Counted from the first letter of the stretch, positions 43,213 through 62,475 are shown. The stretch is 64,000 bases of DNA from Gammaproteobacteria bacterium (GCA_036563665.1 DATCLY010000025.1:21042-85041), one strand, 5' to 3'. Made by a program: numbers and translations. Notes: generated by a model from the letters alone, not told the origin.

Positions 43213-43257
43213 GCGTTTGCGCCCATGCGCCGCGCGGCTCCCCCTCCGGTAATCGCT

Positions 43258-43265: not shown

Positions 43266-43371
43266 TGGCCGGCGCGGGGCCTGAGCAGGACGGGCAAACC
43301 CGGAGCAGCGGCAATACTGTCACCCGCGCTGACCCGTGAGCACGCCGCCCGGCGCCCGACAGGGGGAAACC

Positions 43372-45780: not shown

Positions 45781-45911
45781 GAGCTTCCCTCCCGTGGGCG
45801 GCTTGATCAGAAACGCAATCTAGCGGAACTCCGGGGCGCGCGATGTGAAGCGCTTCCGCGCTCGCACCGCGGCCCCGACGCGCCGTCCTCCGGGCGCTGA
45901 GCTCGCAAAGG

Positions 45912-46973
45912 CTATTCAGACCGCGCGGCTTCGATCGACGCCGCGATGTCCATGAACACGCGGGCGTACGCGGCGTTGTCGAGCTGCGCCATGGCGAAGT
46001 GGCCGCCGCCCCGCAGGCCGCGATCGGGCAGCCATACGAAGGACGCGTCGGCGCCCGCCTGGCGCCACACGGCGGCCTGGCACTCGAGCGCGTCACGGTT
46101 CGCGAGCCCGCGCTCGGAGGCGACCAGGACGATCGGCAAGTCCGCGTAGCGCACGAGCCGGCTCGGAGGGTCGGGCTGCATCATGCAACCGTCCCGTTCC
46201 ACGGCCTTGAAGTCGCGCGGCAGCGGCGGCTCGGCGGTCCACTCGACGATCAGCGGCGGGCTGCCGCCGAACCCGGGCGCGGTCGGGTTGGCGCCCGCGG
46301 CCTCGAACGCGATGATGCCGACGACGTTGCTCGCGTTGCGCTCGGGCACGCGGAACGTGCTGCCGCCGCCGGCCGAATGCGCCAGCAGGATGGCCGGGCC
46401 GATCTCGTCGAGCAGCGCGGAGATCGTCTGCGCGGCGAGCGCGTCGCCGCAGTAAGGCGCCGTCGTCGAGCTCGCGGTCCAGCCGACGACGGCGGGGTTC
46501 GTGGGCGTGGGCTCGCCGCCGGGCCACACGTCCGCATCGGACGTCGCGAGCCGGGAGATGATCGCGGAGTTGGCGACGCCCACGCTGCCGTTGCCGCAGC
46601 CCGAGTTGCTCTGCGAGCGCCCGTGGCCCGGCCGGTCCACCACGTAGACGTCCCAGCCGTCCGCCACGAAGTAGTCGACCCAGCCGTCGCGTCCGTCCGG
46701 CGTCTCGAGCCAGTCCGTGCCCTGCCCGCCGCCGCCGTGGATCATCACCACGGGATAGCGGTGCCGGCGCTCCGCCGGCAGCAGGTACTGGACGAACATC
46801 GCGTTGCGCACGTCGAGCGAGCCGTCGTCCTTCGCCTGCGTGGTGTAGCCGACGAACCTCGCGCCGACGTCGCGCAGCTCGAGACGTCCCGCCTCACCGC
46901 CCGCGAGCACGGGCGCGGCGGCCATCGCCGCCACAGCAGCGACGGCGAACGAATATCGGGCCATTGCCTGCAT
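45912..46973 (-). CDS. Secreted alpha/beta hydrolase
   Basis: ATG 46973 with GAGGAG 8 nt upstream. Signal peptide MQAMARYSFAVAAVAAMAAAPVLAG. Blocks VVMIHGGGGQG, nucleophile elbow AHSAGG and late GGGHFA. Confidence 0.85.
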   Translation of the reverse strand: MQAMARYSFAVAAVAAMAAAPVLAGGEAGRLELRDVGARFVGYTTQAKDDGSLDVRNAMFVQYLLPAERRHRYPVVMIHGGGGQGTDWLETPDGRDGWVDYFVADGWDVYVVDRPGHGRSQSNSGCGNGSVGVANSAIISRLATSDADVWPGGEPTPTNPAVVGWTASSTTAPYCGDALAAQTISALLDEIGPAILLAHSAGGGSTFRVPERNASNVVGIIAFEAAGANPTAPGFGGSPPLIVEWTAEPPLPRDFKAVERDGCMMQPDPPSRLVRYADLPIVLVASERGLANRDALECQAAVWRQAGADASFVWLPDRGLRGGGHFAMAQLDNAAYARVFMDIAASIEAARSE

Positions 46974-47169
46974 TCGAAAAACTCCTCGTTGACGGAACGG
47001 CCGCCACGCGGCGGCCGCAAGCCGGGAAGGCTCGGATTTGATCGTTGGCCCGCGCAAAAAGCAAGCGCGGCACGGGGAATTTCCGCCCAGCGCCGTTGTC
47101 TCTTTTCCGGCTCGGCACGCGCGGCACGCCACTTGCGTCGCCGCTGAGCCACGAGTTAATTAGGGTGCC

Positions 47170-47191
47170 GGCGCCGCGCGCCCGCGGCGCC
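47170..47191. other. 9-bp GC hairpin GGCGCCGCG-CGCC-CGCGGCGCC in a divergent intergenic region
   Basis: Read directly. The arms at 47170..47178 and 47183..47191 are exact reverse complements. It lies 50 nt upstream of the NEW3-protein start. Confidence 0.3.
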
Positions 47192-47193
47192 TC

Positions 47194-47240
47194 CCAACCA
47201 CAAGGAACAAGAAGGAGCCAACCACAACAAAGGAGGCAGA
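47194..47240 (+). promoter_or_regulatory. C/A-rich tandem leader with repeated GGA motifs upstream of the NEW3/ABC operon
   Basis: CCAACCACAA occurs twice (47194..47203 and 47218..47227). Each copy is followed by an AAGGA(G) element (AAGGAA, AAGGAG, AAGGAGG). The last serves as the SD for GTG 47244. Confidence 0.3.
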
Positions 47241-47243
47241 ACC

Positions 47244-48398
47244 GTGCGCGCAGTCCTGGTCACGATCACCGCCTCGTCGCTGCTCTCGAGCGCCGCCCTG
47301 GCGCAGGACACCGACTACCGCGGCCTGTGGGTGTCGACGCCCTATCCGTCGATCGAGGTCGCGCCCGGCGACGACATCTCCTTCTCCCTCACCGTCCACA
47401 ACGCCAACCGGCCGCCCCAGCGCGTCGCGCTGAGCGTGCTCGACGCGCCCGAGGACTGGGACGTGCGCCTGCTCGGCGGCGGCAAGCCGGTGGGCGCGGT
47501 GTTCGTGGGACCGGACGCCACGGCCAACCTCCAGCTCGAGCTCGAGCCGCCTGCGGGCACGGCCAAAGGCGAATACTCACTCACGGTGCGCGCGGCGGGC
47601 AGCTCCGACCGCTTCGATCTGCCGCTCGAGGTCGTGATCGGCGAGACGCCGCCCGCGAAGCTCGAGCTCGATCCGGAGCTGCCGATCCTGCCCGGCACGC
47701 CCGATACCGCGTTCCGCTTCAACGTGGAGCTCGAGAACGGCACCGGCGAGGACGCGCTGATCGCGCTCTCGGCGGACGCCCCGCCGGGTTTCCAGGTGTC
47801 GTTCAAGGAGCGCTTCGGCTCCCAGCGGCTCTCGAGCGTGGCCGTTGAGGCCGGCCGGACGCAGGGCCTCGAGATCGAGGTGAGGCCGCCGCAGGGCACG
47901 GAAGCCGGGCGCTATCCGGTCACCGTGCGCGCGATGGCGGGCGAGGTGGCGGCAACCACCGAGCTCATGCTCGACGTGAGCGGGCAGCCGGCGCTGCGGC
48001 TGACGGCGCCCGGAGAGCTCTTGTCCGGGCGCGTGGAAGCCGGCGAGCAGACGCCGCTGCAGCTCGTGCTGCAGAACACCGGCAGCGCGCCCGCGCAGGG
48101 CGTGCGCTTCTCCGCGTCGCAGCCGCAGGGCTGGGAGATCGAGTTCGAGCCCGAGACCGTGCCGGTGCTGCCGCCCGGCGAGCGCGTGGAGGTGCGCGCG
48201 CTCGTCACGGCGCCCGCCGAGGCCATCGCCGGCGACTACATGCTGACGCTGCGGGCGAACGCCGACGCGGCGTCGGCCAACTCCGAGTTCCGCGTCACCG
48301 TGCGGACCTCGACGCTCTGGGGGATCGTGGGCCTGGTCGTGATCGCGGCCGCCGTGGCCGTGCTCGCGCTCGCCGTCATGCGCTACGGGAGGCGTTGA
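47244..48398 (+). CDS. Exported NEW3/CARDB-like repeat protein with C-terminal membrane anchor
   Basis: ORF 47244..48398(+), GTG start after AGGAGG. Signal peptide [21 protein letters not shown]. Three Ig-like repeats each end in a GxYxxTVRA-type strand ([27 protein letters not shown]). Terminal [23 protein letters not shown]. Confidence 0.8.
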
Positions 48399-48400
48399 CC

Positions 48401-49336
48401 ATGACCGCCGTGATCGAAGCGCGCGGCCTCACCAAGCGCTACGGCGGGATCACGGCCGTCGACGGCATCGACCTCGAGATTCGCCGCGGCGAGGTGTTCG
48501 GCCTGCTGGGCCCGAACGGCTCGGGCAAGACGACGACCATCCTGATGCTGCTCGGGCTCACCGACGTCACCGCCGGCAGCGTGCGCGTGCTCGGGCTCGA
48601 TCCCGCGCGCGAGCCGCTCGCCGTGAAGCGGCGCGTGGGCTACATGCCGGACACGGTGGGCTTCTACGAGCACCTGTCGGCGCGCGCGAACCTGCGCTAC
48701 ACGGGGCGCCTCGCCGGCATCGACCGGGCCGTGCTCGACGAGCGCATCGACGCCGCGCTCGCGCAGGTGGGCTTGAGCGAGGCGGCCGACCGGCGCGTGG
48801 GCGCCTTCTCCGCCGGCATGCGCCGCCGGCTCGGGCTCGCCGACGTGCTGCTCAAGGAGCCCGAGATCGCGATCCTCGACGAGCCCACCAACGACCTCGA
48901 TCCCACGGCCACGCGCGAGTTCCTCGATCTCATCCTCGCGCTCAAGGGCCGCAACATCACGGTGCTCCTGTCGTCGCACCTGCTCGAGCGCGTGCAGGCC
49001 GTGTGCGACCGCGTGGCGCTGTTCCACCGCGGCCGCGTGGCGCTCGAGGGCACCGTCGCCGCGCTCGCGCAGCAGGTGCTGGGCGGCGGGCATCGGATCA
49101 TCCTCGAGGCGGACGGCGCCGAGCTCGAGCCGGCGCTCGAGCGCCTGCAGGGCGTGGTCGGCGTGAGCACGCCCGAGCCCGGCCGCTACGTGATCGAAGC
49201 GTCCGAGGACGTGCGCGCGGCCGTCGCGGCGGAAGCGGTGCACGCCGGGGCGGCCGTCAAGTCGCTCGCGCTCGAGCAGCCGAGCCTGGCCGAGGTGTAC
49301 GCGAGCTACTTCAGGAGGCTGCGCGATGCGGCGTGA
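48401..49336 (+). CDS. ABC transporter ATP-binding protein (ABC-2/DrrA-like)
   Basis: ORF 48395..49336(+). ATG 48401 is preferred over TTG 48395. Walker [10 protein letters not shown], signature [12 protein letters not shown], Walker [11 protein letters not shown]. Confidence 0.95.
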
Positions 49337-50288
49337 AGGATCTCCCTGGACCGGGCTCGCCACCGTGGTGGCGAAGGAGATGGCCGACCACCTCACGAGC
49401 GCGCGCATGCGGATCCTCGAGGGGCTGATCGTGCTGATCGCGGCCGGCACGCTCTACACGTCGATCGGCATGCTGCGGCGCACCACCGTGGAAGATCCGT
49501 TCCTGTTCCTGCGGCTCTTCACGATCGCCGATGCGCCGCTGCCGTCGTTTCTGTCCTTCCTGGGCTTCTTCGTGCCGCTGATGGCGATCGCGCTCGGCTT
49601 CGACAGCATCAACGGCGAGTATGCGCGCCGCACGCTGTCGCGCGTGCTCGCGCAGCCGATCTACCGCGACGCGCTGATCTTGGGCAAGTTCCTCGCGAGC
49701 CTCGCGACGCTCGCGCTCACGCTCGCGGCGCTGTGGCTCATCGTGACGGGGGCCGGGCTGCTGTTCCTCGGCGTGCCGCCGAGCGGCGAGGAGGTGCTGC
49801 GGGGCATCGGCTTCCTCGTCGTCACCATCGCCTACGCCGCCGTGTGGCTCGCGCTCGCGATGCTGCTCTCCACGACGTTCCGGCAGGCGGCCACGGCGGC
49901 GCTCGCGGCGCTCGCGGTGTGGCTGCTGTTCTCGATCTTCTGGCCGATCATCGTGGACTTCCTCGCGCCGCTCTTCGTGGGGCAGCCCGCGGACCTCGTG
50001 GCCGCGCTGCAGGCGGCCGCGGACCGGGCGCAGGCGCAGCTCGCGCTGTCGCGCGTCTCGCCGAACACGCTCTACGGCGAGGCGACGCTCGCGCTGCTCA
50101 ACCCCGAGACGCGCACGCTCGGCCTCGTGTTCTTCGGCCAGCTGCAGAACGCGATCGTGGGCGCGCCGCTGCCGCTCGGGCAGAGCCTGCTCTTGATCTG
50201 GCCGCACGTCACGGGGCTCGCGGCGGCGGCGATCCTGCTCTTCACGCTGACCTACGTGCTGTTCCAGCGGCAGGAGGTGCGGGCCTGA
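49326..50288 (+). CDS. ABC-2 type transporter permease
   Basis: ORF 49326..50288(+). Overlaps the ATPase gene by 11 nt. Six hydrophobic spans, with the N-terminus [18 protein letters not shown] typical of ABC-2 permeases. Confidence 0.85.
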
Positions 50289-50294
50289 GGCGGC

Positions 50295-50312
50295 GCGCCG
50301 CGAACGCGGCGC
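50295..50312 (+). terminator. Candidate stem-loop terminator after the ABC-2 permease
   Basis: GCGCCGC-GAAC-GCGGCGC (7-bp stem, 4-nt loop) starts 7 nt after the stop codon. It has no U-tract, so this is weak. Two further GC hairpins follow before avtA. Confidence 0.25.
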
Positions 50313-50404
50313 TCGCGTGAGCACGCCCCGGCGCGCCGCCGAGCGCGTCGGGGCGGAATGGGGGTAAGCTCGGGGCTTCGCCCCGCTCGCCCCCGAGAGA
50401 CCGC

Positions 50405-51691
50405 ATGCCGTTCGAGTTCTCGACCTTCGGACAGCTCTTCACGCGCCCCACGGGCGCGCTCGAGCTGATGGACGACATGGGTCGCGCGCTCGACGGCCAG
50501 CGCGACGTCGCGTTCCTGGGCGGCGGCAACCCCGCGAAGATCCCGGCCGTCCAGGCGCGGCTCGCGCGCCGGCTCGCCGAGATCGCGGCCAACGGGCCCG
50601 AGCTCGACCGGATGGTCGCGAACTACCCGCATCCGGCCGGCGAGCTCGCGTTCCGGCGCGCCCTCGCCCGGCTCCTGGCGCGCGAGTACGGCTGGCGGCT
50701 CACGGCGGACAACGTCGCGCTCACGGCCGGCAGCCAGGCGGCGTTCTTCCTGCTCTTCAACCTGTTCGCGGGACGCGACGCCCAGGGCCGCCGCCGGCGC
50801 CTGCTGCTGCCGATGACGCCCGAGTACGTGGGCTACGCGGACGTGGGCCTCGAGCCGGACCTCGTCGTCGCCCGCCGCCCGGTCATCGAGGAGCTCGACG
50901 CGCCGTTCTTCAAGTATCGGATCGACTTCGCACGCCTCGGGCTCGGTGACGACGTGGGCGCCGTCTGCATCTCGCGCCCCACGAATCCGACCGGGAACGT
51001 CATCGGCGACGCCGAGCTCGCCGAGCTCGGGGCCCGCTGCGCGGCCGCGGGCGTGCCGCTCATCGTCGACGGCGCATACGGGCGGCCGTTCCCCGACATC
51101 GTGTTCGGCGACGCGGAGCCCACGTGGAGCGACGGCACGATCCTGTGCCTGAGCCTCTCGAAGCTCGGGCTGCCCGGCGTGAGGACGGGCATCGTGATCG
51201 CGCACGCCGAGATCGTCGAGGCGCTCACGCGCATGATCGCGGTGATGAACCTCGCCGTGGGCAGCGCCGGGCCGGTGCTGATGCAGCCGCTCGTCGAGAG
51301 CGGCGAGATCCTCGCGCTCGCCCGCGAGCACGTGCGGCCCTACTATCGAGACAAGTCGCAGCGGGCCTGCGAGCGCCTCGTGCGCGCGCTCGACGGCGTG
51401 CCGTTCAAGGTGCATCGTCCCGAAGGCGCGTTCTTCCTGTGGATCGCGTTTCCCGGCCTGCCGATCACGAGCGCGGAGCTCTATGCGCGCCTCAAGGCGG
51501 CCGGCGTGCTCGTGCTGTCCGGCCACTATTTCTTTCCGGGGCTCGACGAGCCGTGGGCGCATCGCGACGAGTGCATCCGCCTGTCGTTCGCGCAGGACGA
51601 CGAGGTGGTCGAGCGCGGCATCCGCCGTCTCGCGGCCGAGGTGCGCGCGGCGTTCGACGGCGGAGCCTCCGCCGTCACATCTCGACGTTGA
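50405..51691 (+). CDS. avtA: Valine--pyruvate aminotransferase
   Basis: ORF 50405..51691(+), 428 aa. MPFEFSTFGQLFTRPTGALELMDDMG is the AvtA-typical N-terminus. Blocks GGGNPA and the PLP-lysine block LSLSKLGLPGVRTGI. Confidence 0.9.
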   Translation: MPFEFSTFGQLFTRPTGALELMDDMGRALDGQRDVAFLGGGNPAKIPAVQARLARRLAEIAANGPELDRMVANYPHPAGELAFRRALARLLAREYGWRLTADNVALTAGSQAAFFLLFNLFAGRDAQGRRRRLLLPMTPEYVGYADVGLEPDLVVARRPVIEELDAPFFKYRIDFARLGLGDDVGAVCISRPTNPTGNVIGDAELAELGARCAAAGVPLIVDGAYGRPFPDIVFGDAEPTWSDGTILCLSLSKLGLPGVRTGIVIAHAEIVEALTRMIAVMNLAVGSAGPVLMQPLVESGEILALAREHVRPYYRDKSQRACERLVRALDGVPFKVHRPEGAFFLWIAFPGLPITSAELYARLKAAGVLVLSGHYFFPGLDEPWAHRDECIRLSFAQDDEVVERGIRRLAAEVRAAFDGGASAVTSRR

Positions 51692-52511
51692 GCACCACGT
51701 CCGCCTCGGCGCCCGCCATGGACACCGAGAAGCGGTTGATGCCCGGCTTGAACTCCTTGCGCAGCGTCTCGAGGTTCACGCGCCCCTGGAGCTCGTGGCA
51801 AGGCTCGCCGCGGCGGCTGGTGATGATGGACACCATGATGGGCCGGACGGGCGCGCCGTTGACCGCGGTGACGTTCGCCTCGCGGGTGAACGCCCGGTTG
51901 CAGAGCGTGAGCTCGAGCGGCAGCGTGCCCTTCCGCTGATCGAGCTCGTCGTACAGGACGTCCACGGTGAGGTCCGGCAGGTCGCCGAGCTTCAACGTGG
52001 GCAGCGCGTCGTCGGGCAGCGTGATGCGCGTATCCGCGGGGATCGACGCGTCGAACACGGTGCCGACATCCAGCACCGCCTTGCGGCCCGGCAGGAACAC
52101 GGCGGGAAACAGTATGGCCCCCAGGCCGCGCGCCAGCGCGTAACGGTTGCCGCCCGATTGATCGTAGCCGCCGGAGAGCGTGATCTCGGTGCCGTCCACG
52201 GCCTTCACCGACACGGCCATCACGCGCACCGAGCCGCCTTCGCCGCCGATGTCGCTGTCGTCGAGCTTGGAGATGCGCAGCTCCATCGGCGTGCCGGCGG
52301 CGATGACGGTGTGACCGTCCACCACTACGTCCTTCCAGACGTGGCCGTCCACCGGGTAGCCGACCCTGAACTTCCGCTCGCTCGACGTGATGCGCTCGTC
52401 GAGCTCGCCGAACACGACGGTGCCGCGCGGGATGATCACCTCCTTCGCGAGCACGCAGGCGGGAGCGACGGAGGCCAGGACGCCGGATAGGAGCGCGATG
52501 CCGAGTCTCAT
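51675..52511 (-). CDS. Secreted hypothetical protein
   Basis: ORF 51675..52511(-). Signal peptide MRLGIALLSGVLASVAPACVLA. Coherent beta-rich sequence with no recognised domain. Its 3' end overlaps the avtA 3' end by 17 nt (convergent). Confidence 0.7.
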   Translation of the reverse strand: MRLGIALLSGVLASVAPACVLAKEVIIPRGTVVFGELDERITSSERKFRVGYPVDGHVWKDVVVDGHTVIAAGTPMELRISKLDDSDIGGEGGSVRVMAVSVKAVDGTEITLSGGYDQSGGNRYALARGLGAILFPAVFLPGRKAVLDVGTVFDASIPADTRITLPDDALPTLKLGDLPDLTVDVLYDELDQRKGTLPLELTLCNRAFTREANVTAVNGAPVRPIMVSIITSRRGEPCHELQGRVNLETLRKEFKPGINRFSVSMAGAEADVVLNVEM

Positions 52512-52638
52512 GAGCCGTCGATCGGGTAGGTCGGCCGCATCTTACGGCAGGCGTCCGCACGTTGTCGATTCGACAAAATGTTCTTCTGCCCGGGAGGCTC
52601 CCGGCGGAGGGGAGAAGCCCCGGATGGGGCGGCCGGGA

Positions 52639-54105
52639 TTACTGCGACTCGGCCAGGCTACGGAGCAGCGCGGCCACCGATTCGTTGAACCCGCGGCCGG
52701 GGGTGGTCACGATGTCGAGCGCGGTGCGCCCCTCGTCGTCGCGCGCGTCGACGCGCGCGCCGTTCGCGACCAGCAACGTCACGAAGGCCGCGTTGCCGAG
52801 CCGCGCGGCCCGATGCAGCGCCGTCTCGCCGTTGGCGGCCCGCGCGTTGACGTCGACGCCCGCGTCGAGCAGCAGGCGCAACGCCTCGCGCGTGCGGTCG
52901 GTGTCGACGTCGCCGACCCCGCCGACGAATGGGCGCAGCGCCCCCGCCAGCACGAACACCGCGGTGGCGCCATCGGCCTGCGTGAGCATGGGATCCGCCC
53001 CGGCCTCGAGCAGGACGCGCATGGACTCCATGTCGAGGCCCCGCGCGGCGCGCATGAGCGCCGTCGTGCCGGCGCCGAGCGTGCGATCGGGGAAACCGTG
53101 ATGCCGCGGGATGGCGGGCTCGGTGAGCTGGGCGTTCGGATTGGCGCCGTGGGCGAGCGCGAGCCGCACGAGATCGTGCGCATCCCGCTCGTCCCGGTTC
53201 GGCCGCGCCGGCCGGCCGATCTCGCGGCCGAGCGTCGCCATGTCCACCGCGGCGTAGAGCGCGTTCACGCCGGTGCGGTCCGCCACGTTCGGATCCGCGC
53301 CCGCCTCGAGCAGCTCGGCCGCGAGATCGTAGTGGGCGTTCATGATCGCGATGGCGAGCGCCGTGGTGCCGTCCGGGTCCTGCGCGTCGAGGTCCGCCCC
53401 CATTTCGACGAGCGCCCGCGCCGCGGCGCGCGAGCCCTGGCGCGCGGCCAGCATGAGCGCCGTCCAGCCGCCGGAAGGCAGCACGGTGGAGACCATGCCC
53501 GTCTGCTCCCAGTTCATGGGCAGCAGGTCGAGCACGCGGGAATGCGCGTTCGGGTCCGCGCCGCCTTCGACGAGGGCACGGATCGCGTCGGGGTGATCCT
53601 CGGCCGCGGCCCACATGAGCCCCGTCTCGCCGAGCGACGTCTCGCTCGCGTTCGGATCGGCCCCCGCACGGAGCAGCACGCGAATGGTGGCGACGTCGCC
53701 CGCCCGCGCGGCCGCCATGAGCGCCGTCTCGCCGTGGGGCAGCGCGCCGTTCACCTCCGCGCCGTGCTCGAGCAGGAGCTCCGCGAGCGGCGCGTTGCGG
53801 TTGATGGCCGCGACCCAGAGCGGCGTGATGCCGAATCGATTGGGCAGGTTGGGATCCGCGCCCGCCGCGAGCAGCGTGCGGGCCAGCTCGACGTCGTTCG
53901 CCTGGCACGCCCAGAGCAGTGCGGTCATGCCGTCGCCGCCGGGCGCGTTTACGTCACCCGCCCCGGTGCCCGCCTCGAGCAAGTCGCGCACGGCGGCGAG
54001 ATCGCCCCGCCGCGCGGCCTCGACGAGGTCCACCGATGCCGGCCGGGCGGGCCCGGCCAGCAGCAGCACGGCGAGCGCGAGCAACCAGCGCGGACGCACG
54101 CTCAA
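52639..54105 (-). CDS. Secreted ankyrin-repeat protein, paralogue 3 (about 488 aa)
   Basis: C-terminal part of ORF 52639..54900(-). No in-frame ATG near the signal peptide. TTG 54105 overlaps the DUF1552-B stop as TTGA, and GTG 54099 is the alternative. Signal peptide RPRWLLALAVLLLAGPARPA. Multiple ankyrin units. Shares the central block NALYAAVDMAT...GTTALMRAA with paralogues 1 and 2. Confidence 0.88.
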   Translation of the reverse strand: MSVRPRWLLALAVLLLAGPARPASVDLVEAARRGDLAAVRDLLEAGTGAGDVNAPGGDGMTALLWACQANDVELARTLLAAGADPNLPNRFGITPLWVAAINRNAPLAELLLEHGAEVNGALPHGETALMAAARAGDVATIRVLLRAGADPNASETSLGETGLMWAAAEDHPDAIRALVEGGADPNAHSRVLDLLPMNWEQTGMVSTVLPSGGWTALMLAARQGSRAAARALVEMGADLDAQDPDGTTALAIAIMNAHYDLAAELLEAGADPNVADRTGVNALYAAVDMATLGREIGRPARPNRDERDAHDLVRLALAHGANPNAQLTEPAIPRHHGFPDRTLGAGTTALMRAARGLDMESMRVLLEAGADPMLTQADGATAVFVLAGALRPFVGGVGDVDTDRTREALRLLLDAGVDVNARAANGETALHRAARLGNAAFVTLLVANGARVDARDDEGRTALDIVTTPGRGFNESVAALLRSLAESQ

Positions 54106-55412
54106 ATGTCCACCGTGCCCGTGCTGATGCCGAACGTGTCCATCTCCACGCCGTAATGCTGCGCGAGCGTGAGCATGAGGTTCGCGATCGGCGTCTCCGG
54201 CGCCGCCTGGACGTGGCGGCTGCCCCGACCGCCGAACCCGCCCACGAGCAGCGTCGGCAGATCGTTCGGGTCGTGGTTGTTGCTCTCGCTCATCCCGCTG
54301 CCGAACAGGATCATCGAGCTGTCGAGCAGCGACCCGTCGGCATCCGGCGTCTCCGCGAGCCGTGCCAGGAATTTCTCGAATAGCGTGATGTGATACACGT
54401 TGAGCTTGACGAGCTGCTGCTTCTTCTCCTCGTTGCCGCCGTGATGCGACAGCGAGTGATGCGGCTCCGTGATCCCGATCTCCGGGTACGTCCGCTGGGT
54501 GATGTCGCGGCTCATCATGAACGTGAACACCCGCGTCAGGTCCGCGGCCCACGCGAGCGTCAGCAGCTCGAACTGCAGCCCGACGTGCTCCGCGAAGGAG
54601 TCCGGAATGCCGACCGGCGCCGCCGGTATGTCGAGCTCCGCCCCCGCCTGACGCTCCGCCCGCTCGATGCGCTGCTCCGTCTCCCGCACGTTGTCCAGAT
54701 AGTCCTCGAGCCGCGCGCGGTCCTGCGGGCCGATGTCGCGCGTGAGATCGGCCAGGTCGTCCTGGATCGAATCCAGGATGCTGCGGCCCGTGCGCATCCG
54801 CTCGAGCCGCTGCTCCGGCGTGCCGGCGCGCCCGAACAGCCGCTCGAACAGCCGCCGCGGATTGATCTCCATCGGCAACGGCTCCGTCGGCGACGCCCAC
54901 GACAGCGTGTTCACGTACGCGCAGGCATACGCCGGGTCACATCCGCCGATGTATCCGGTGAAATCTTCCGTCGCCACCTCGAGCGACTTGAACACCGTGT
55001 CCTGACCGATGTGGTTGGCGATGACCTGATCCACGGTGGTCCCCGCGCGCACGTCCTCGGCCACCGTGCGCTTCGGGATGCTGCCCGACAGCCACGACGC
55101 CACCGTCACCGCGTGCCCCGCCACCGGATTGCAGAGCTGCGACACCACCGTGAGCTGGTCGCGGTAGGCCGCCAACGGCTCGAGAATCGGCGAGAGCTCC
55201 ACGTCGTACCCCACCTGCGCGGGCGTCCAGTAGCCCGGCCGCTCGCCGTGCGGCACGAACACCACGCCGAACCGCTTCGGCCGGCGATCCGGGGTGGCGC
55301 CGAGCGCGGTCGCCGCGGGCCACATGGCGCTCAGGAACGGCAGCGCCACGCTCACACCCGCGCCCCGCAGCACGTGCCGTCGGGAAAGCGCCTTTCGCGT
55401 CAAGAACCCCAT
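54102..55412 (-). CDS. DUF1552-family Tat-exported protein (cassette B)
   Basis: ATG 55412 of ORF 54102..55463(-) with GAGGAG upstream. Tat signal MGFLTRKALSRRHVLRGAGVSVALPFLSAM. Collinear with 39434..40777. Confidence 0.88.
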   Translation of the reverse strand: MGFLTRKALSRRHVLRGAGVSVALPFLSAMWPAATALGATPDRRPKRFGVVFVPHGERPGYWTPAQVGYDVELSPILEPLAAYRDQLTVVSQLCNPVAGHAVTVASWLSGSIPKRTVAEDVRAGTTVDQVIANHIGQDTVFKSLEVATEDFTGYIGGCDPAYACAYVNTLSWASPTEPLPMEINPRRLFERLFGRAGTPEQRLERMRTGRSILDSIQDDLADLTRDIGPQDRARLEDYLDNVRETEQRIERAERQAGAELDIPAAPVGIPDSFAEHVGLQFELLTLAWAADLTRVFTFMMSRDITQRTYPEIGITEPHHSLSHHGGNEEKKQQLVKLNVYHITLFEKFLARLAETPDADGSLLDSSMILFGSGMSESNNHDPNDLPTLLVGGFGGRGSRHVQAAPETPIANLMLTLAQHYGVEMDTFGISTGTVDI

Positions 55413-55425
55413 CGATCCATCTCCT

Positions 55426-57849
55426 CTAGGCCGAGGCGTCGGCAGCCGCCTCGGGTTTGACACGCATTCTGAACGGAACGCTGTTCACGATGCCGAGAAC
55501 GATCTCCGAGAAGCGGTAGTCGTCCTCCGCCGCGTCGCGGACGATCCGCCGCACGGCCGGCATGTCGTCGGCCGTGAGCCCACGCCCCAGCGCATAGATC
55601 ATGAGCTTCTCCACGAGCGTGCCCACGAACACTTGCGGGTCGCGCAGCAGCGCCTCGCGCAGCTCGACGGGCCCCGTCACCTCGGTGCCGTCCGTCAGCC
55701 GGGCGTGCGCATCGATGCGGGGCGTATCGATGCCGGCCTCGTGGTCCCGCCACGCGCCCACCGCGTCGAAATTCTCGAGCGCGAAGCCGATCGGATCCAT
55801 GATGCCGTGGCACGCGGCGCACACCGAGTTCTGCCGGTGAGCCTCGAGCCGCGCGCGCAGCGTGTCGGCCACCACTTCCTCGAGCGGCGGCACGTCTGGC
55901 GGCGGCGGAGGCGGCGGCGTGCCGAGCAGGTTCGTGAGCACCCAGTTCCCGCGGACCACGGGCGACGTCCTGTCGGTGTGCGACGTGACCATCAGCACGC
56001 TGCCCTTGCCGAGCAGGCCGAAGCGGGCCTCGTCCTCGAGCTGCACGCGCCTGAAGTGCGGGCCGTAGACCCCCTCGATCCCGTAGTGCCGCGCCACGCG
56101 CTCGTTGAGGAAAGTGTAGTCCGCGGTCATGAAGTCGAGGACGTTGCGGTCCTCACGCATCACGCTCTCGAAGAACAGCCTCGTCTCCGTGAGGAAGCCC
56201 TGACGCAGGTTGTCGTCGAAGTCCGGGAAGCCCACCGAGTTCGGCACGAAGCTCTCGAGGTTGCGCAGATACAGCCACTGGCCGGCGAAGTTGTCGACCA
56301 GCGCCGCGGCTTTCGGGTCGGCCAGCATGCGGCGCACTTGCGCCTCGAGCACGCGGGGATCGGTGAGCGCGTCGCGCTCGGCGAGCTCGAGCAGCTCGTC
56401 GTCGGGGATGCTGCTCCAGAGGAAGAAGGACAGCCGCGTCGCGAGCTCGCGGCTCGCGACCGGATACGCCTCGCCCGGAGCGACCTCCGGCGGGTCGCGC
56501 TCCACGCGGAAGGTGAACTTGGGGCTCGCGAGCAACCGCTCGATGGCGACCTGGATGCCGCCCTCGAAACCGCGCGCGGCGCGGCCCCGCTCGAAGAAAG
56601 CCATGAGCGTGTCCACGTCGTGCGGCGTGTCGTAGCCGCGATAGGCGCGCCGCGCGAGCGTCGAGAGGATCTCGCGCGCACACTCGCGCTCCGCCGCCTC
56701 GCTCGCCGCCGCGTCCGGGTAGCACACGAAGATGCGTTGCCGCGAGGGCGTATCGCCCGGCCCCGTGGCACCGTAAGGACCGGACACGGTCAGCGTCTCG
56801 ATGTGCGGGTGACCGGTCACGTCGAGGATGTCCTGGGAGCTGCGCAGATACGGCTGAAGCCGCACGCTCGTCTGCAGCGCACCCTGGTACACGAAGCCCA
56901 CGCTGATGTCGTGCGGCCCGGCCGTGAGCGGCACGACGGTGGAGCTGCGCGCCTCCACCGCTTCCGCCGCCTCCGTGATGTTGCGCATGAGGGCGGCGAA
57001 GTCCTCCGGCCCCCCGATCGTGGCCGAGTGCACGCGCCGGCCGTCGACGGCGATCTCCATCTCGTGCGCCGTCTCGAGCCCTTTCATGGCGCCGAGGTTC
57101 GATTTGAAGTACGTGACGTCGAGGCGGTACTCGCCGTCGAGCGGCAGCACCACGCGCCACCGGCCGCCGCCGACCGTCCCGAGCGGCATGCCGGGCACCG
57201 GGATGTCTTGCGAAGCGTCCTGGCGTACGCGGAACGTCTGCGCGGCGGGGCCCGTGGTGGGGTCGCCCACTGCGAGCGCCGCGATCTCGCCGGCCGCGCT
57301 CAAGTACTGCTCGACGAGCACGGGCGAGGTGCCGAGCGCCTCCGCGTTGTTGTCGAAGCCGTAGGCGGAGTCGTCGGGCGGCAGCAGCGCCGTGGCGTCG
57401 ATCTCGACGTGCAGCAGGTCGCGCACCGCGTTCTCGTATTCCGCGCGATTCAGCCGCCGCACGAGCGCGGGCCCCGGATTCGGCCGCTCGCGCGCCGCGC
57501 GGTCGAGCCGCTCCTCGAGCCACGAGATGAGCGCGCGCCGCTCTTCGGCCGGCGGCTTGGGCGCATCCGCCGGCGGCATCATGCCCGCGCGCAGCTTGCG
57601 GATGACCTTCTCCCACGCGTCGGCATCGCGCTCCGGATGGGAGAGATCGAGCTCGTCGAGCGCCAGATCCGCCGTGAGATCGATGGGATTATGACAATCG
57701 AGGCAGTAGCGATCGACGAGCCTGCGATGATCGTCGACGGAGGGCGCGAGGCTCGCGCGCACGACCAGGTAGCCGGCGGGCAGGCCGACGCTCGCCACGA
57801 GCAGCGCCGCGAGAAGGCGCCGGTCAGCTGCGACTCCGCGATTCCTCAT
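55426..57849 (-). CDS. DUF1592/DUF1595/DUF1587/DUF1585/DUF1588 multidomain protein with CxxCH motifs (cassette B)
   Basis: ORF 55426..57849(-), 807 aa. CLDCH at 57691..57705 and a later CAACH. Blocks LSFFLWSSIPDDELLELA, TADYTFLNERVARHYG, DRTSPVVRGNWVL and PPPPPPPD. Collinear with 40780..43212. Confidence 0.88.
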   Translation of the reverse strand: MRNRGVAADRRLLAALLVASVGLPAGYLVVRASLAPSVDDHRRLVDRYCLDCHNPIDLTADLALDELDLSHPERDADAWEKVIRKLRAGMMPPADAPKPPAEERRALISWLEERLDRAARERPNPGPALVRRLNRAEYENAVRDLLHVEIDATALLPPDDSAYGFDNNAEALGTSPVLVEQYLSAAGEIAALAVGDPTTGPAAQTFRVRQDASQDIPVPGMPLGTVGGGRWRVVLPLDGEYRLDVTYFKSNLGAMKGLETAHEMEIAVDGRRVHSATIGGPEDFAALMRNITEAAEAVEARSSTVVPLTAGPHDISVGFVYQGALQTSVRLQPYLRSSQDILDVTGHPHIETLTVSGPYGATGPGDTPSRQRIFVCYPDAAASEAAERECAREILSTLARRAYRGYDTPHDVDTLMAFFERGRAARGFEGGIQVAIERLLASPKFTFRVERDPPEVAPGEAYPVASRELATRLSFFLWSSIPDDELLELAERDALTDPRVLEAQVRRMLADPKAAALVDNFAGQWLYLRNLESFVPNSVGFPDFDDNLRQGFLTETRLFFESVMREDRNVLDFMTADYTFLNERVARHYGIEGVYGPHFRRVQLEDEARFGLLGKGSVLMVTSHTDRTSPVVRGNWVLTNLLGTPPPPPPPDVPPLEEVVADTLRARLEAHRQNSVCAACHGIMDPIGFALENFDAVGAWRDHEAGIDTPRIDAHARLTDGTEVTGPVELREALLRDPQVFVGTLVEKLMIYALGRGLTADDMPAVRRIVRDAAEDDYRFSEIVLGIVNSVPFRMRVKPEAAADASA

Positions 57850-58046
57850 GATGCGACCGGATGCGCCGACGGCGAATCCAATTGATCTCGACGAAGTCTA
57901 CCGCCGAATCGGTTGCAAATCTCCGGAGCGTCGCCGCAACCGGCAGCGACGGCAGCGACACGCGTTGTTCGCTCATCTCGAATGCTATGACTGCGAGCAA
58001 CAGGAACGCCTGCGCCTCCGGCCGTCGGCGTCTGTGCGTCCTCGGG

Positions 58047-58784
58047 CTACGCGCGCTTCGGCCGGCACACGAAGTACAGGCACACGGCGAACCGCTCGGG
58101 GAGCGGCGCGGTCCGCTCGAGCCAGCGCCAGGCGGACGCGGGCAGCAGCCGCAGCAGCCACTTGTCGTAGGAGGCGATGCCGCGCCACTCGACGACTTCG
58201 AGGCCGTGGCGGGCGGCGAGCGCCACGCACTCTCGCAGCGTCATCGAGGAGAACGCCTCGCCCGTGATACGCGCCTTCGCGGCGACCACGGCGCGGGTGC
58301 TGTAGCGGTTGCCGTGCACGTTGAACACGAGCCGCGAAGCGTCGTCACGGAGAGCGGACGCGAGCCAGGCCATCGCCTCCTCGCGCAGGGACGGCTGCGC
58401 GTTCAGGAAGAACCGGAAGGCGGTGATGAGATCGAACCTGCGCCCGCCGAGCACGTCCGGGTCGCGCGTCGGATCGCCGCACACGAGCTCGGCCGCACGC
58501 ACGCGCTGCCGGGCGGCGGTCAGCATCGTGTCCGAGATGTCGACGCCCACCGCCGAGCGGAAACGCTGCTCGAGATAGGCGAGCACGCGCCCCGTGCCGC
58601 ACGCGAAATCGAGGTAGCTGTCGCGGCGCGCCACGTGCCGCTGCAGGATCTCGTCGAGGAGGCGCTGCTCGCGCTCCCACACGACCGCGTTGAAGGAGCC
58701 GGACGGGAACAAGGTGGCGTCGTAGTCCTTGGCCCAGGACTCCTCTCCGACGTGCGCGGTTCGGTAATCCCGCAGGCCCCTCAT
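58047..58784 (-). CDS. Class I SAM-dependent methyltransferase
   Basis: ATG 58784 within ORF 58047..59429(-) overlaps the upstream stop (ATGA). Motif I is YLDFACGTGRV. Also contains VGVDISDTML and a DLITAFRFF post-I/II pattern. Confidence 0.85.
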   Translation of the reverse strand: MRGLRDYRTAHVGEESWAKDYDATLFPSGSFNAVVWEREQRLLDEILQRHVARRDSYLDFACGTGRVLAYLEQRFRSAVGVDISDTMLTAARQRVRAAELVCGDPTRDPDVLGGRRFDLITAFRFFLNAQPSLREEAMAWLASALRDDASRLVFNVHGNRYSTRAVVAAKARITGEAFSSMTLRECVALAARHGLEVVEWRGIASYDKWLLRLLPASAWRWLERTAPLPERFAVCLYFVCRPKRA

Positions 58785-59596
58785 GCCGTGGGCGCGAGGT
58801 CGTCCGTGCGAAACAGCCGGCTGCGCCGCAGATACCGGCCCGCGAACGACTCGCCGAGATACGTCGTCTCGAGGAGCTCGTTGGCGCAGCGCTCGAGCAG
58901 GCGGCGATCGTAGGCGTCGGGCGCGGTGCGGAAGTAGCCACGGACGAAGGCGCGCGCGAGCTCGCGCAGCTCTGCCCGCATGGCCAGGTGGAGCTGGTGG
59001 GGCGGATACTTGGCCCTGAGCAGCAGCACGAACAGCGCGATGTCGCGGTAGACGTCGCCGCGGTTGTACGCCGGGAAGCGGGCATAGTCGGGCGGCGTGA
59101 AATCCACGAACACGGCCCGGTCGGCGCCGCGCTTCACGAGGACGTTGTCGAAGTCGAAGTCGCCGTGGATGCGGCGCGTGTGCCGGTGCAGCTCTTCGAG
59201 CGCCGCGCCGATCGCCCAGAAGAGGCGGCGCAGCTCCGGGGGCGGAATCCCCTGGAACGTGCGATGCCGGATCACCGTGCGAACGGGCTTCCACCCGACC
59301 AGCAGCTCGTAGTCGATCCGTAGCTCCCGTGGGTCCGCCAGCAGCACGCGCGGGACTCGCAGCCACGACGAGCGCTGCGCCGCCGCCCACGCCCGCAGCG
59401 AGTTGCGCAGCGTGGCGCGATACAGCCACTCCTCCGCGAAACGCTTGCTGAAGCGCGGCACGCCGGGGGCCGGCGGCGGCGTTCCGGCCGCGGAAGCGGC
59501 CAGCGCGTCGTGCGTCGCCCGGTTGCCGGTGGTCCCTGCGATCGCGCTCCTCCTCGAGCTCGCCGTGCGGGCCGCGGCCCGCCGGCCGTCACGCAA
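58781..59596 (-). CDS. Small protein-kinase-like fold protein (Kdo/WaaP/RIO-like)
   Basis: ORF 58781..59596(-), start uncertain (TTG 59596). Catalytic-loop-like IHGDFDFDNVLV followed by VFVDFT (DFG-equivalent). The N-lobe is short with no clear Gly-rich loop. Confidence 0.65.
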   Translation of the reverse strand: MRDGRRAAARTASSRRSAIAGTTGNRATHDALAASAAGTPPPAPGVPRFSKRFAEEWLYRATLRNSLRAWAAAQRSSWLRVPRVLLADPRELRIDYELLVGWKPVRTVIRHRTFQGIPPPELRRLFWAIGAALEELHRHTRRIHGDFDFDNVLVKRGADRAVFVDFTPPDYARFPAYNRGDVYRDIALFVLLLRAKYPPHQLHLAMRAELRELARAFVRGYFRTAPDAYDRRLLERCANELLETTYLGESFAGRYLRRSRLFRTDDLAPTA

Positions 59597-59790
59597 CCGT
59601 CATCATTTTGTCACACCGACGCGCGGCAGGTTCGCGCGGCGGCGGCTCGCTCCTCGACGAGCTGGAGCGCCCGTGCTACGGAAGGCATGAAGCGGCGGTT
59701 CCCGCAACGGGCTGCGGCGCGCGATCGGCGGGCTTCCTCCCGCCGACCGCTGCTATCATCCCGCGTGGTGCTTCGCTCCGGGGGGCCCGC

Positions 59791-60825
59791 ATGAGGCCGA
59801 TCTGGATACTCGTCCTGCTCGCCGCCGGCCCGGCCGGCGCGCTCGCGCAGAGCTGCGAGCCGGAAGGCGACCTGCGGTTCGTGTGCGGCTTGAACGCCGT
59901 CGAGGACCTGGTGCGGGTGGGCGATTCGCGGTGGTTGCTGGGCAGCGGCCTCGGGGGCGACGGCCAGCCGGGCACGCTGGTGCTGATCGATTCCGACGCG
60001 AAGACGGGCGAGGTGATCTATCCGGCCGAGCGCGCCCCCGTAGCGCACGCCCGCGAGCGCTTTCCGGCCTGCGCCGCACCGCCCGACGCGAGCGTGTTCA
60101 ACGCCCACGGCATCACGCTGCGGGCCACCGGGGCCGGCCGGTACGAGCTCCTCGTCGTGAATCACGGCGGGCGCGAAGCGGTCGAGTTCTTCGACGTGGA
60201 TGCGCGCGGCGCGAAGCCCGCGCTCACGTGGATCGGCTGCGTGAACATGCCGCCCGACACCTCGATCAACTCGCTCGACACGCTCCCGGACGGCGGCTTC
60301 ATCGCTACGCACTTCTACACGCCGAGCAAGGGCGGCATGGGCGCCGTGTTCGACGGCGAGATCACCGGCGGGCTGCTCGAATGGCATCCGGGCGGCGAGG
60401 TCACGCCGATTCCCGGCACGGAGCTTTCCGGCGCGAACGGCATCGCGCTGTCGGACGGCGGCCGCGTGATTCACGTGGCGGCGTGGGGCACGCGCGACCT
60501 CGTGCGCTTCGAGCGGCGCGGCGGCGGCGTCACCAAGCGCGCCGTGCCCGTGGACTTCGCGCTCGACAACATTCGCTGGACGTCCGACCGCAAGCTGCTG
60601 ATCGCCGGGCAGAAGTTCGTTCCCCGCCGCGAAGGCCCGGAGTCGCTCGACGGCTGGACGGTGGCCGTGTACGACCCCGACACCCTCGAGCACGTCGCCA
60701 CGCTCAAGGATGTCGACGAGACCGCCGCGTTCCAGGGCGTGAGCAGCGCGCTCGAGGTGGGTGACACGATCTGGGTCGGCCCCTTCGAGGGCGATCGCAT
60801 CGCGTACTTCCCGAACCCGCGCTGA
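59791..60825 (+). CDS. Secreted SMP-30/arylesterase/strictosidine-synthase-like beta-propeller protein
   Basis: ATG 59791 within ORF 59608..60825(+). Signal peptide MRPIWILVLLAAGPAGALAQ. Blocks NAHGITL, LSGANGIALSDGGRVIHVA and a GVSSALEVGDTIWVGPFEGDRIAY C-terminus. Confidence 0.8.
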   Translation: MRPIWILVLLAAGPAGALAQSCEPEGDLRFVCGLNAVEDLVRVGDSRWLLGSGLGGDGQPGTLVLIDSDAKTGEVIYPAERAPVAHARERFPACAAPPDASVFNAHGITLRATGAGRYELLVVNHGGREAVEFFDVDARGAKPALTWIGCVNMPPDTSINSLDTLPDGGFIATHFYTPSKGGMGAVFDGEITGGLLEWHPGGEVTPIPGTELSGANGIALSDGGRVIHVAAWGTRDLVRFERRGGGVTKRAVPVDFALDNIRWTSDRKLLIAGQKFVPRREGPESLDGWTVAVYDPDTLEHVATLKDVDETAAFQGVSSALEVGDTIWVGPFEGDRIAYFPNPR

Positions 60826-60864
60826 CGCCGCCGAAGTGGCGGCCCGCCCGGGCGGCGGGCCTCG

Positions 60865-61584
60865 TCAGAAGCGGTTGCGCTTGATGATCTCCGTGATGCC
60901 GTGGAGATCGTCGATCTCGTAGTCGGCCGGCGTGTCTCCGGGCTGGAACGTGTCGCGCGTCATGCCGGAACGGCGGATCTGCGCCGTGATCATGTCGATC
61001 GCCATGGCGCCCTGACAGTCGAAGGTGGGCCCGGCGCAGTAGAGCACGTCGCGGACGTCGAGCCCCGTCTGACGCAGCACCCAGTAGTAGGTCCGCGGAT
61101 GCGGCTTGTGGAAGCCGGCCTCCTCGGTAGTGCCCACGAAGTCGGGCTTGAAGCGCTTGAACTTGCTCACGTACATGTCGAGGTACTTGCGCTCGACGTC
61201 GGAGTAGATGAGCACCTTGACGCCCAAATCCTGCTGCTCCTGCAGCGCGGCCTCGGTCTCGGGGAAGAGCTGCACCTGGTCCTGCAGGTCCAGCATGAGG
61301 TGAACGTCGTCCGGCGAGCCTTCGATGCCGTGGATCTTGAAGGCCGTCATCATCGCCTGCTGCACGAGATCCGACACCGGCGTGTAGCGGAAAGCGGCCG
61401 CACGCCGATGCGCGCCTTCGAACTGCCGCGCCCAGGTCTCGAGGAACGCGTCGGCTCCGACCGGCGCGTCGTACTTCTTCACGATCTCCTCCGCCGCGCG
61501 CCGCCACGTCCACGGCCAGTCGAACAGCGTGCCCTTCGAGTCGTAGAAGATCGCACGCGGCCACCGTCCCTTGAGTACGCCCAT
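60865..61584 (-). CDS. HAD-superfamily hydrolase (haloacid dehalogenase type II-like)
   Basis: ORF 60865..61584(-). Motif I is IFYDSKGTLFDW. Also contains LIYSDVE, GFHKPHPRTYYW and a later CAGPTFDCQGA. Confidence 0.82.
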   Translation of the reverse strand: MGVLKGRWPRAIFYDSKGTLFDWPWTWRRAAEEIVKKYDAPVGADAFLETWARQFEGAHRRAAAFRYTPVSDLVQQAMMTAFKIHGIEGSPDDVHLMLDLQDQVQLFPETEAALQEQQDLGVKVLIYSDVERKYLDMYVSKFKRFKPDFVGTTEEAGFHKPHPRTYYWVLRQTGLDVRDVLYCAGPTFDCQGAMAIDMITAQIRRSGMTRDTFQPGDTPADYEIDDLHGITEIIKRNRF

Positions 61585-61610
61585 CTCGATCCTCCTCCTT
61601 GCCTTCGAGC

Positions 61611-62462: not shown

Positions 62463-62475
62463 CGGAGGCTCCGTC

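Follow-up and report, generated by a model that had tools for sequence, protein, structure and literature searches.

An exported ankyrin-repeat protein accompanies DUF1592 and DUF1552 genes in two collinear cassettes of a gammaproteobacterial metagenome-assembled genome and in related loci

Introduction

Proteins of the PSCyt/DUF15xx families were first noted in Rhodopirellula and are abundant in Planctomycetes and Verrucomicrobia. Here we examine a gene cassette (cassette B) that encodes two such proteins and an exported ankyrin-repeat protein in a 64,000-nucleotide stretch of DNA, hereafter the window, from a metagenome-assembled Gammaproteobacteria bacterium (GCA_036563665.1, DATCLY010000025.1:21042-85041), and compare it with a second cassette (A) in the same window. 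The pairing of PSCyt3/DUF1592 with DUF1552 genes is usual in Verrucomicrobia and its function is unknown (He et al., 2017, PMC5615132). Both cassettes resemble this pair: their DUF1592 proteins (B1 and A1) have the full domain set of the PSCyt3 type, named for a "Planctomycete-specific cytochrome c" (DUF1592/DUF1588/DUF1587/DUF1585/DUF1595), and their DUF1552 genes (B2 and A2) lie immediately downstream. They differ from it in carrying, as do about 100 related loci, a third exported gene for an ankyrin protein (B3) or, in type A, genes for a metallo-beta-lactamase-fold (MBL) protein (A3) and an ankyrin protein (A4). The hosts also differ, being mainly Acidobacteriota and Proteobacteria rather than members of the Planctomycetes-Verrucomicrobia-Chlamydiae group. 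A literature search for DUF1552, DUF1592, DUF1501 and PSCyt3, with or without ankyrin, turned up neither a functional study nor any reference to an ankyrin partner. The DUF1592-DUF1552 pair is already known, then, and the co-evolving ankyrin partner is not recorded in the literature searched.

Bacterial ankyrin-repeat proteins are mostly discussed as host-directed effectors. In Pseudomonas aeruginosa, the katB-ankB locus places an ankyrin gene beside that of a haem enzyme. Another such gene, for the small ankyrin protein Cj1386 of Campylobacter jejuni, lies directly downstream of the catalase gene katA and supports KatA, in the account of this work given in PMC4518328 (Flint et al., 2012). Cassettes A and B share with katA-Cj1386 an ankyrin gene adjoining a haem-protein gene, but the likeness is an analogy only: the partners are a c-type cytochrome and a DUF1552 protein instead of a catalase, and B3, with about 12 repeats, carries a signal peptide of its own. 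No catalase was found in the cassettes or among the 40 predicted genes scanned by Pfam (14743..63983; the genes of 145..14746 were left out of the scan).

Results

Gene content and divergence of the two cassettes

The G+C content of the window is ~71%, so genes were called by third-position G+C and then checked with Pfam. The two cassettes and their signature motifs are as follows:

55426..57849, minus strand: B1, DUF1592-type predicted dihaem cytochrome c, 807 aa, ATG start
57691..57705, minus strand: haem-binding motif 1 of B1, CLDCH (C49..H53), invariant in 52 aligned homologues
55807..55821, minus strand: haem-binding motif 2 of B1, CAACH (C677..H681), inside PSCyt3, likewise invariant in the 52 homologues
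55413..55425, minus strand: spacer between B1 and B2, 13 nt (aggagatggatcg, with AGGAG inside)
54102..55412, minus strand: B2, DUF1552/HXXSHH protein with a twin-arginine translocation (Tat) signal, 436 aa, ATG at 55412
54441..54458, minus strand: HxxSHH signature of B2, HSLSHH (H319..H324)
52639..54099, minus strand: B3, exported ankyrin-repeat protein, 486 aa from GTG
40780..43212, minus strand: A1, DUF1592-type paralogue, 810 aa, motifs CVECH and CNACH
39434..40777, minus strand: A2, DUF1552 paralogue, 447 aa, Tat signal, HPVSHH
38480..39424, minus strand: A3, MBL protein, Tat signal, HWHLD
36906..38447, minus strand: A4, exported ankyrin paralogue, 513 aa, ATG start

An earlier reading of the window from its sequence alone had described cassette B as a copy of cassette A in gene order and strand, and the verified coordinates of all genes agree with this. 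The position of CLDCH, the 13-nt spacer, the Tat-bearing DUF1552 protein and the 127-nt gap downstream of the ankyrin gene were all exact on re-reading. Cassette A as a whole (36906..43212) is collinear with cassette B, with protein identities of 47% (DUF1592), 47% (DUF1552) and 40% (ankyrin). The intergenic gaps are 13 nt and then 2 nt or an overlap in cassette B, and 2, 9 and 32 nt in cassette A. Scans of 51300..58300 for sigma-70 promoters and terminators gave a single promoter-like site, before a 278-aa gene downstream of B3, and no convincing terminator. We accordingly set the operon limits by spacing only. The deposited annotation describes the products only as "DUF1592 domain-containing" and "ankyrin repeat domain-containing".

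The proteins of cassettes A and B are 48% (DUF1592), 45% (DUF1552) and 38% (ankyrin) identical over nearly their full lengths (BLASTP). The DNA of the two cassettes is 65-72% identical, in patches only. This patchy identity and the existence of closer orthologues elsewhere rule out an assembly repeat or a recent duplication, and the pairwise alignments uphold the initial view of an old duplication or separate acquisition. Relatives of the cassettes elsewhere share 72-85% (A) and 60-82% (B) identity with them, compared to 40-47% between A and B. By these sequence comparisons, cassettes A and B are ancient paralogues.

Conservation of the gene order

We assembled two sets of related loci, chosen by DUF1552 similarity only and without regard to ankyrin. 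A one-genome-per-species scan with a DUF1552 alignment yielded 79 B-like loci (48-82% identity to B2), and a metagenome scan with A2 yielded 80 A-like loci (66-85% identity); their genes were located by tblastn with the window proteins. A pilot had already placed three ankyrin homologues of B3 (60-68%), all of them directly after a same-strand DUF1592-DUF1552 pair. In the larger sets, DUF1592 lies directly upstream of DUF1552 in 68 of 73 evaluable B-like and 45 of 48 evaluable A-like loci. The ankyrin gene follows DUF1552 directly in 68/71 B-like loci. In A-like loci the order DUF1552, MBL, ankyrin prevails (33/41), and the ankyrin gene follows directly in 2 more (35/41). Between the stop codon of DUF1552 and the start of the ankyrin gene lie 8 nt at the median, and in 69% of the junctions the two are separated by 20 nt or less or overlap. 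The flanks are not kept, as no other window gene occurs in more than 17 of 163 loci. Since the order was seen in ~100 independent loci, its recurrence is far beyond chance.

These counts bear on two earlier proposals. The retention of an ankyrin gene in both cassettes had been taken as a sign that its product is a functional component, and its retention beside DUF1552 across the two sets of loci favors that view. The MBL gene had been described as present only in cassette A. It is indeed specific to type A, where across the relatives it is the conserved fourth gene (33/41) and no accident of this genome. The comparison thus supports and extends the earlier interpretation, with a module of three conserved genes in type B and of four in type A.

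In two of the three B-like exceptions, DUF1552 is present as a tandem pair of genes, after which comes an ankyrin gene. Two tandem DUF1552 genes (52-56% identity to B2) stand between DUF1592 and ankyrin in loci L027, L034 and L036. The order ankyrin, DUF1592, DUF1552, with the ankyrin gene upstream, was observed in L004 (9476..14663, minus strand) and L161 (1..5089, minus strand), and the sole ankyrin gene of L083 is divergent from DUF1592. An intact triad in L001 is directly preceded (484..4112) by fragments of PSD4, PSD2 and HXXSHH together with three ankyrin pieces, which look like either a decayed cassette or long-read frameshifts.

By record label, the hosts of the B-like loci include several classes of Acidobacteriota (Bryobacterales, Vicinamibacterales, Terriglobia), Gammaproteobacteria including Steroidobacteraceae, and Alphaproteobacteria (Hyphomicrobiales), a few labels being evident binning errors. 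A separate plasmid search located the triad in a cultured bacterium, Novosphingobium sp. KACC 22771, on a 1.33-Mb plasmid. On this plasmid (NZ_CP117882.1), DUF1592 occupies ~943.5-945.8 kb, DUF1552 945,893-947,227 and ankyrin ~947,184-948,518. The DUF1592 and DUF1552 proteins are each 42% identical to those of the window and the ankyrin protein ~30%.

Co-divergence of the three components

The three components diverge together. We aligned each component from 91 complete cassettes and compared the distance matrices, which gave Mantel r values of 0.90 (DUF1592-DUF1552), 0.92 (DUF1552-ankyrin) and 0.90 (DUF1592-ankyrin). When three-gene and four-gene cassettes were each analysed on their own, r was 0.86-0.92 and 0/999 permutations reached a value as high. 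The component phylogenies are therefore congruent, as the functional reading of the ankyrin gene had anticipated. Furthermore, the cassette nearest by DUF1552 had a median ankyrin rank of 1, and for 91% of cassettes it was among the three nearest by ankyrin.

The same coupling is evident when paralogous cassettes are compared. A4 is 72-75% identical to A-type ankyrins elsewhere and B3 60-68% to B-type ankyrins, and the two share ~40% with each other. Four genomes or loci with two complete cassettes allowed a paralogue test: in 7/8 comparisons the ankyrin was nearer to that of the nearest foreign DUF1552 than to its in-genome paralogue. Genomes with several cassettes keep one ankyrin per cassette. 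The identities and the paralogue test indicate that the ankyrin genes were not duplicated independently of their neighbors and have been together with them since before the A/B split. Whether B3 and A4 are each other's closest relatives or track their DUF1552 partners had been raised at the outset; each tracks its own cassette.

The ankyrin protein

B3 has no ATG start under either of its possible start codons, as had been pointed out. The TGA of B2 (54102..54104) does overlap a TTG (54103..54105) from which B3 had been proposed to begin. The overlap is real, but the choice of start did not hold: a GTG at 54097..54099, 6 bases downstream of the TTG, lies 9 nt after a Shine-Dalgarno-like GGTGGA, and translation from GTG 54099 gives the deposited 486-aa protein P0001 (100% identity). 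The better placement relative to GGTGGA and the match to the deposited length make GTG 54099 the more likely start than TTG 54105. Across 75 orthologous junctions, the best-supported ankyrin starts are ATG (39), GTG (30) and TTG (6). This start usage, a third-position G+C of 0.93, at least 120 listed homologues (53-100% identity) and a dN/dS of 0.31 (at dS 0.27) against the closest orthologue (85% identity), which reflects purifying selection, show that the non-ATG start is no threat to B3 being a gene.

B3 matches the Pfam models Ank_2 (208 bits against a cut-off of 27) and Ank (194 bits) and comprises about 12 ankyrin repeats with three insertions. Its N-terminus (MRPRWLLALAVLLLAGPARPA) resembles a secretory (Sec) signal peptide, and a signal-peptide-like N-terminus is found in ~90% of 119 members of the ankyrin family. 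We compared the concave groove of the repeats with their back face using 55 B-type orthologues and eight regular repeats. Canonical target-binding positions have a mean conservation of 0.61 and exposed back-face positions 0.45 (one-sided Mann-Whitney p = 3e-4), and the groove residues are near-invariant in repeats 2-6 of B3.

The DUF1592 protein

B1 is identical (100%) to the deposited protein P0241. Its Pfam domains are, in order, PSCyt1, Cytochrome_CBB3, PSD3, PSD5, PSD4 (DUF1592), PSCyt3 and PSD2, all above gathering scores. PSD3 (92 bits), PSD5 (59), PSD4 (160), PSCyt3 (120) and PSD2 (80) score well beyond cut-offs of 23-34, and A1 likewise passes. Haem attachment to both CxxCH motifs is predicted, and an M-P-P sequence (M91-P93) is also invariant in the 52 homologues. 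The N-terminus forms a long hydrophobic helix (an anchor or a signal). The AlphaFold2 model (predicted local distance difference test, pLDDT, 81.6; predicted template modelling score, pTM, 0.83) suggests a layout that combines a class-I-like cytochrome c domain with a beta jelly-roll and with an extensive helical part that holds haem motif 2. Foldseek found no whole-fold counterpart of the model. The central beta sandwich (residues ~200-365) is weakly similar to jelly rolls of the carbohydrate-binding module (CBM) families CBM6/CBM35 and of C1q/TNF (E ~0.01). Searches with the B1 sequence found no match in the PDB and no NCBIfam model.

The DUF1552 protein

B2 scores 295 bits on PF07586 (HXXSHH/DUF1552; cut-off 30) and has no NCBIfam model. 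Its N-terminus (LSRRHVLRGAGVSVALPFL), with a twin-arginine S-R-R at 55377..55385 (SRRHVLRG), is of the Tat type, as are those of A2 (LSRRSVLRGAGVALGLPLL) and A3 (ASRRALLRGAAGAAVGLAL), all three being assigned by reading the motif (S/T-R-R-x-F/L-L/K type plus a hydrophobic stretch). The Tat pathway suits proteins that acquire a cofactor or metal before crossing the membrane. As a Tat-exported protein, B2 is expected to be folded, and probably metal-loaded, before export. Invariant residues in the B2 alignment are H100, H319, H323, H324, H341, H380, H400, S375, S377 and the pair C158/C164, and H55 is nearly so.

The AlphaFold2 model of B2 (pLDDT 76, pTM 0.78) points with moderate confidence to an alkaline-phosphatase/sulfatase-like fold with an invariant histidine cluster. 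The top 50 PDB matches listed by Foldseek are apparently alkaline-phosphatase-superfamily structures, mostly sulfatases (e.g., 8di0 and 1e2s); the remainder seem to comprise phosphonate monoester hydrolases, the periplasmic part of YejM and an intestinal alkaline phosphatase. E values descend to 2e-6 with a probability of ~1.0, but the template modelling (TM) scores are 0.32-0.43 and the identity is ~11%. In a secondary-structure reading of the model, the conserved histidines and serines after beta strands look to be placed where the superfamily binds metal.

The predicted fold may relate B2 to type I sulfatases, phosphonate monoester hydrolases and the YejM/PbgA periplasmic domain, but B2 has neither a sequence-level match to the superfamily nor a conserved formylglycine motif. 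The sulfatase motif C/S-x-P-x-R was considered and rejected: B2 contains SIPKR, but close orthologues have TIPKR and A2 has VRPDE. The histidine-rich ligand set, the Tat export and the obligate cytochrome c partner suggest a chemistry that differs from that of sulfatases.

Neighboring genes and redox context

All open reading frames (ORFs) flanking the cassettes were clustered. A mono- or dihaem c-type cytochrome gene directly follows the ankyrin gene on the same strand in 17/66 B-like operons (among them L011, L012, L014, L016, L018-L021, L023, L044, L047, L057, L068, L074 and L078) and in 0/29 A-type operons, and its gap to the ankyrin gene is 3-90 nt in eight of the 17. Pyrroloquinoline quinone (PQQ)-dependent dehydrogenases lie within a few kb of the cassettes, in varying orientation, in 18/163 loci (L086, L089, L091, L092, L094, L095, L152, L162 and ten B-like loci). 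The dehydrogenase of three A-type loci is 230-285 nt upstream on the same strand, and orthologues (73-85%) are near the cassette in four more. The distant DUF1592-DUF1552 pair of the Sphingobium herbicidovorans plasmid pMSHV is followed by genes for a cytochrome c, a cytochrome b domain protein and a short-chain dehydrogenase/reductase (SDR) oxidoreductase. Cassette A has redox genes on both sides:

43384..45201, plus strand: PQQ-dependent dehydrogenase, methanol/ethanol family, divergent from A1
34221..36208, minus strand: flavin adenine dinucleotide (FAD)-linked oxidase (530 aa) and small cytochrome c (132 aa), with a 4-nt overlap, just downstream of cassette A

The latter pair may be similar to flavocytochromes c of the p-cresol methylhydroxylase type. 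Together, these neighbor associations all point to periplasmic electron transfer. Other recurrent neighbors are TonB-dependent-receptor-like genes (15 loci), VOC/glyoxalase (10), SnoaL_4 (9) and DUF6152 (7). The commonest non-cassette neighbor is a family of ~297-aa proteins that bear a signal peptide and match no Pfam model (20 loci; e.g., L031 14529..15422), which sometimes directly follows the ankyrin gene (L038 and L040).

Generic beta-lactamase models aside, the best NCBIfam matches of A3 are the zinc metallohydrolases of the quinoprotein relay system (TIGR04558 and TIGR04559), which are related to SoxH. A3 is similar to them as a Tat-exported MBL fold near a PQQ dehydrogenase, but at 57 and 47 bits it stays far short of their cut-offs (280 and 300) and is no member. 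A second MBL-fold gene of the window (61611..62450, minus strand; 28% identity to A3) is located 3.8 kb upstream of cassette B, amid haloacid dehalogenase (HAD) hydrolase and hypothetical genes.

The gene downstream of cassette B

One gene close to cassette B had been put forward as an accessory specific to that cassette:

51675..52511, minus strand: hypothetical protein with signal peptide, 278 aa, 127 nt downstream of the end of B3 (52639)

The evidence does not bear this out. The 278-aa protein has no Pfam or NCBIfam match, and no homologue is present in any of the 79 B-like loci. The gene is missing from the closest relative, L168 (ankyrin 85%), in which the downstream gene order is otherwise preserved (aminotransferase, ABC-2 transporter, NPCBM_assoc protein, hydrolase, outer membrane protein and PQQ dehydrogenase). 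It also has its own promoter-like site (52568..52539). The only homologue among 168 loci (L091 12250..13086, 63%) is on the opposite strand, with an A-type ankyrin gene on one side and a PQQ dehydrogenase gene on the other. Thus, 51675..52511 is a lineage-specific neighbor and not a member of the cassette.

An orphan ankyrin paralogue

We also identified a third ankyrin gene of the same family in the window:

19230..21002, minus strand: orphan ankyrin paralogue, 590 aa, signal peptide, 37% identity to B3 over the full length

It has no DUF1592 or DUF1552 neighbor and adjoins a flavin oxidoreductase gene. A tblastn search for DUF1592/DUF1552 remnants beside it (20900..22800) found none, every E value being above 0.1. 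Also adjoining it is a 107-aa ORF (21126..21449, minus strand) with a LysR-type helix-turn-helix only, probably a truncated regulator. In locus L020 (5620..17023), what precedes the genes matching positions 14255..19218 of the window (75-86%) is instead a full operon of DUF1592, DUF1552, ankyrin and dihaem cytochrome c. The orphan has its best homologue (48%) in an extra, divergently oriented ankyrin upstream of the L023 cassette.

Discussion

We propose that cassette B is one copy of a widespread, co-transcribed and tightly coupled three-gene operon, all of whose products would leave the cytoplasm. The DUF1552 protein would be the catalytic subunit and may transform its substrate at a metal centre. 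The DUF1592 protein, as a membrane-anchored or secreted dihaem c-type cytochrome, would link this centre by electron transfer to the respiratory chain or to soluble cytochromes c, and its jelly-roll may bind a ligand. The Sec-exported ankyrin protein, with its ~12 repeats, would be a cassette-specific partner that uses its concave groove to hold or assemble its own DUF1592/DUF1552 pair, acting either as a stoichiometric component (adaptor or subunit) or as a factor dedicated to assembly. Type A would add a Tat-exported MBL-fold hydrolase. The specificity of the ankyrin protein for its cassette is suggested by each paralogous cassette keeping its own co-diverging ankyrin, which a general chaperone would not need. 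We infer a redox function from the domains and neighbors described above, and likewise infer which way the electrons would flow, and we estimate at roughly 0.55 the probability that the three proteins act together as one periplasmic redox module with a cassette-specific ankyrin. A bolder version can be offered only tentatively: the ankyrin would be the obligate third subunit of an unrecognised class of cytochrome-c-linked periplasmic enzymes, in which an alkaline-phosphatase-fold metal centre does redox chemistry, with several paralogous specificities per genome (A, B and others), common in soil Acidobacteriota and Proteobacteria.

Several observations weigh against the proposal of a three-protein module. 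Contact among the DUF1592, DUF1552 and ankyrin proteins is something we infer. Within-type Mantel correlations are partly expected of any genes that share genomes and a species tree, and the groove test presumes the canonical repeat register rather than a model of B3. The resemblance of B2 to sulfatases is only moderate at TM scores of 0.32-0.43 and ~11% identity, and neither the B2 sequence nor the DUF1552 profile matches anything in the PDB. The cytochrome and PQQ-dehydrogenase neighbors occur in a minority of loci and may in part be there by chance. The orphan paralogue slightly weakens the in-window argument for the ankyrin as a functional component. In addition, no ankyrin neighbor accompanies the more distant DUF1552 homologues (27-32% identity) that the plasmid search, with only four distant contexts in all, located in Planctomyces, Sphingobium and Chondrinema. 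Since these distant pairs have none, the DUF1592/DUF1552 pair can work without an ankyrin.

Their lack of an ankyrin also suits a role as a transient maturation factor, which would deliver haem to the cytochrome, stabilise it or load a metal in the manner of Cj1386. The precedent is an ankyrin gene beside a haem enzyme whose full activity requires it, as far as PMC4518328 relates (Flint et al., 2012). The ankyrin moreover evolves faster than its neighbors, with 60-68% identity to the same relatives to which they share 74-82%. However, cells have the general Ccm/Ccs machinery for the covalent attachment of c-type haem, which leaves no obvious need for a trafficking chaperone, and a generic one would require no co-diverging copy for each paralogous cassette. 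B3, at about 12 repeats, is also far larger than Cj1386 and AnkB. We regard a transient maturation factor as unlikely, while noting that it overlaps with the dedicated-assembly-factor branch of the module proposed here. The length of the groove and its near-invariant residues in repeats 2-6 could alternatively mean that the solenoid binds the substrate or some part of the envelope, for instance a polymer, peptide or outer membrane protein, and not the folded cores of the enzymes; it would then present this ligand to the enzyme pair or tether the pair. The CBM-like jelly roll of the DUF1592 protein and the TonB-dependent-receptor-like genes near 15 loci agree with this. Co-divergence fits protein partners, however, and would fit a substrate only if substrates differed from cassette to cassette, which leaves substrate or envelope binding a rather improbable role.

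That the adjacency means nothing, being inherited synteny or the product of an abundant ankyrin family, could be argued from the orphan paralogue and from the extra upstream ankyrins in other orientations (L004, L023, L083 and L161). We strongly disfavor this explanation and give it very little weight: order, strand and a gap of at most 20 nt persist in ~100 loci of different phyla while the flanks change, the arrangement outlived several cassette duplications, and the loci were picked blind to ankyrin. Nor is the ankyrin at all likely to be a secreted effector against eukaryotic cells of the Legionella/Coxiella Ank type, a notion that we also disfavor and hold to be barely credible. NCBIfam models of Dot/Icm Ank effectors do match, with E values down to 1e-39, but the scores of 20-134 bits (118-134 for the best) fall so far below the curated cut-offs of 450-1400 that the similarity is a generic repeat likeness. 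The N-terminal signal is of the Sec type and there is no type IV secretion context. Furthermore, the operons encode periplasmic enzymes and the genomes come from environmental, largely soil, metagenomes.

The loci described here show that the PSCyt/DUF15xx families are abundant in soil Acidobacteriota and Proteobacteria as well. The conserved ankyrin partner, joined in sub-clades by an MBL protein or soluble cytochromes c, defines the unit to purify, and Novosphingobium sp. KACC 22771 is a cultured carrier for genetics. The conservation of the ankyrin gene also provides a well-supported case of ankyrin repeats that serve environmental bacteria in a housekeeping capacity within their envelope. 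If the proposed module is real, it would be the first defined complex for the DUF1592/DUF1552 families, whose function was unknown as of 2017, and B3 would be a rare ankyrin scaffold that acts inside the bacterial envelope instead of in a host cell.

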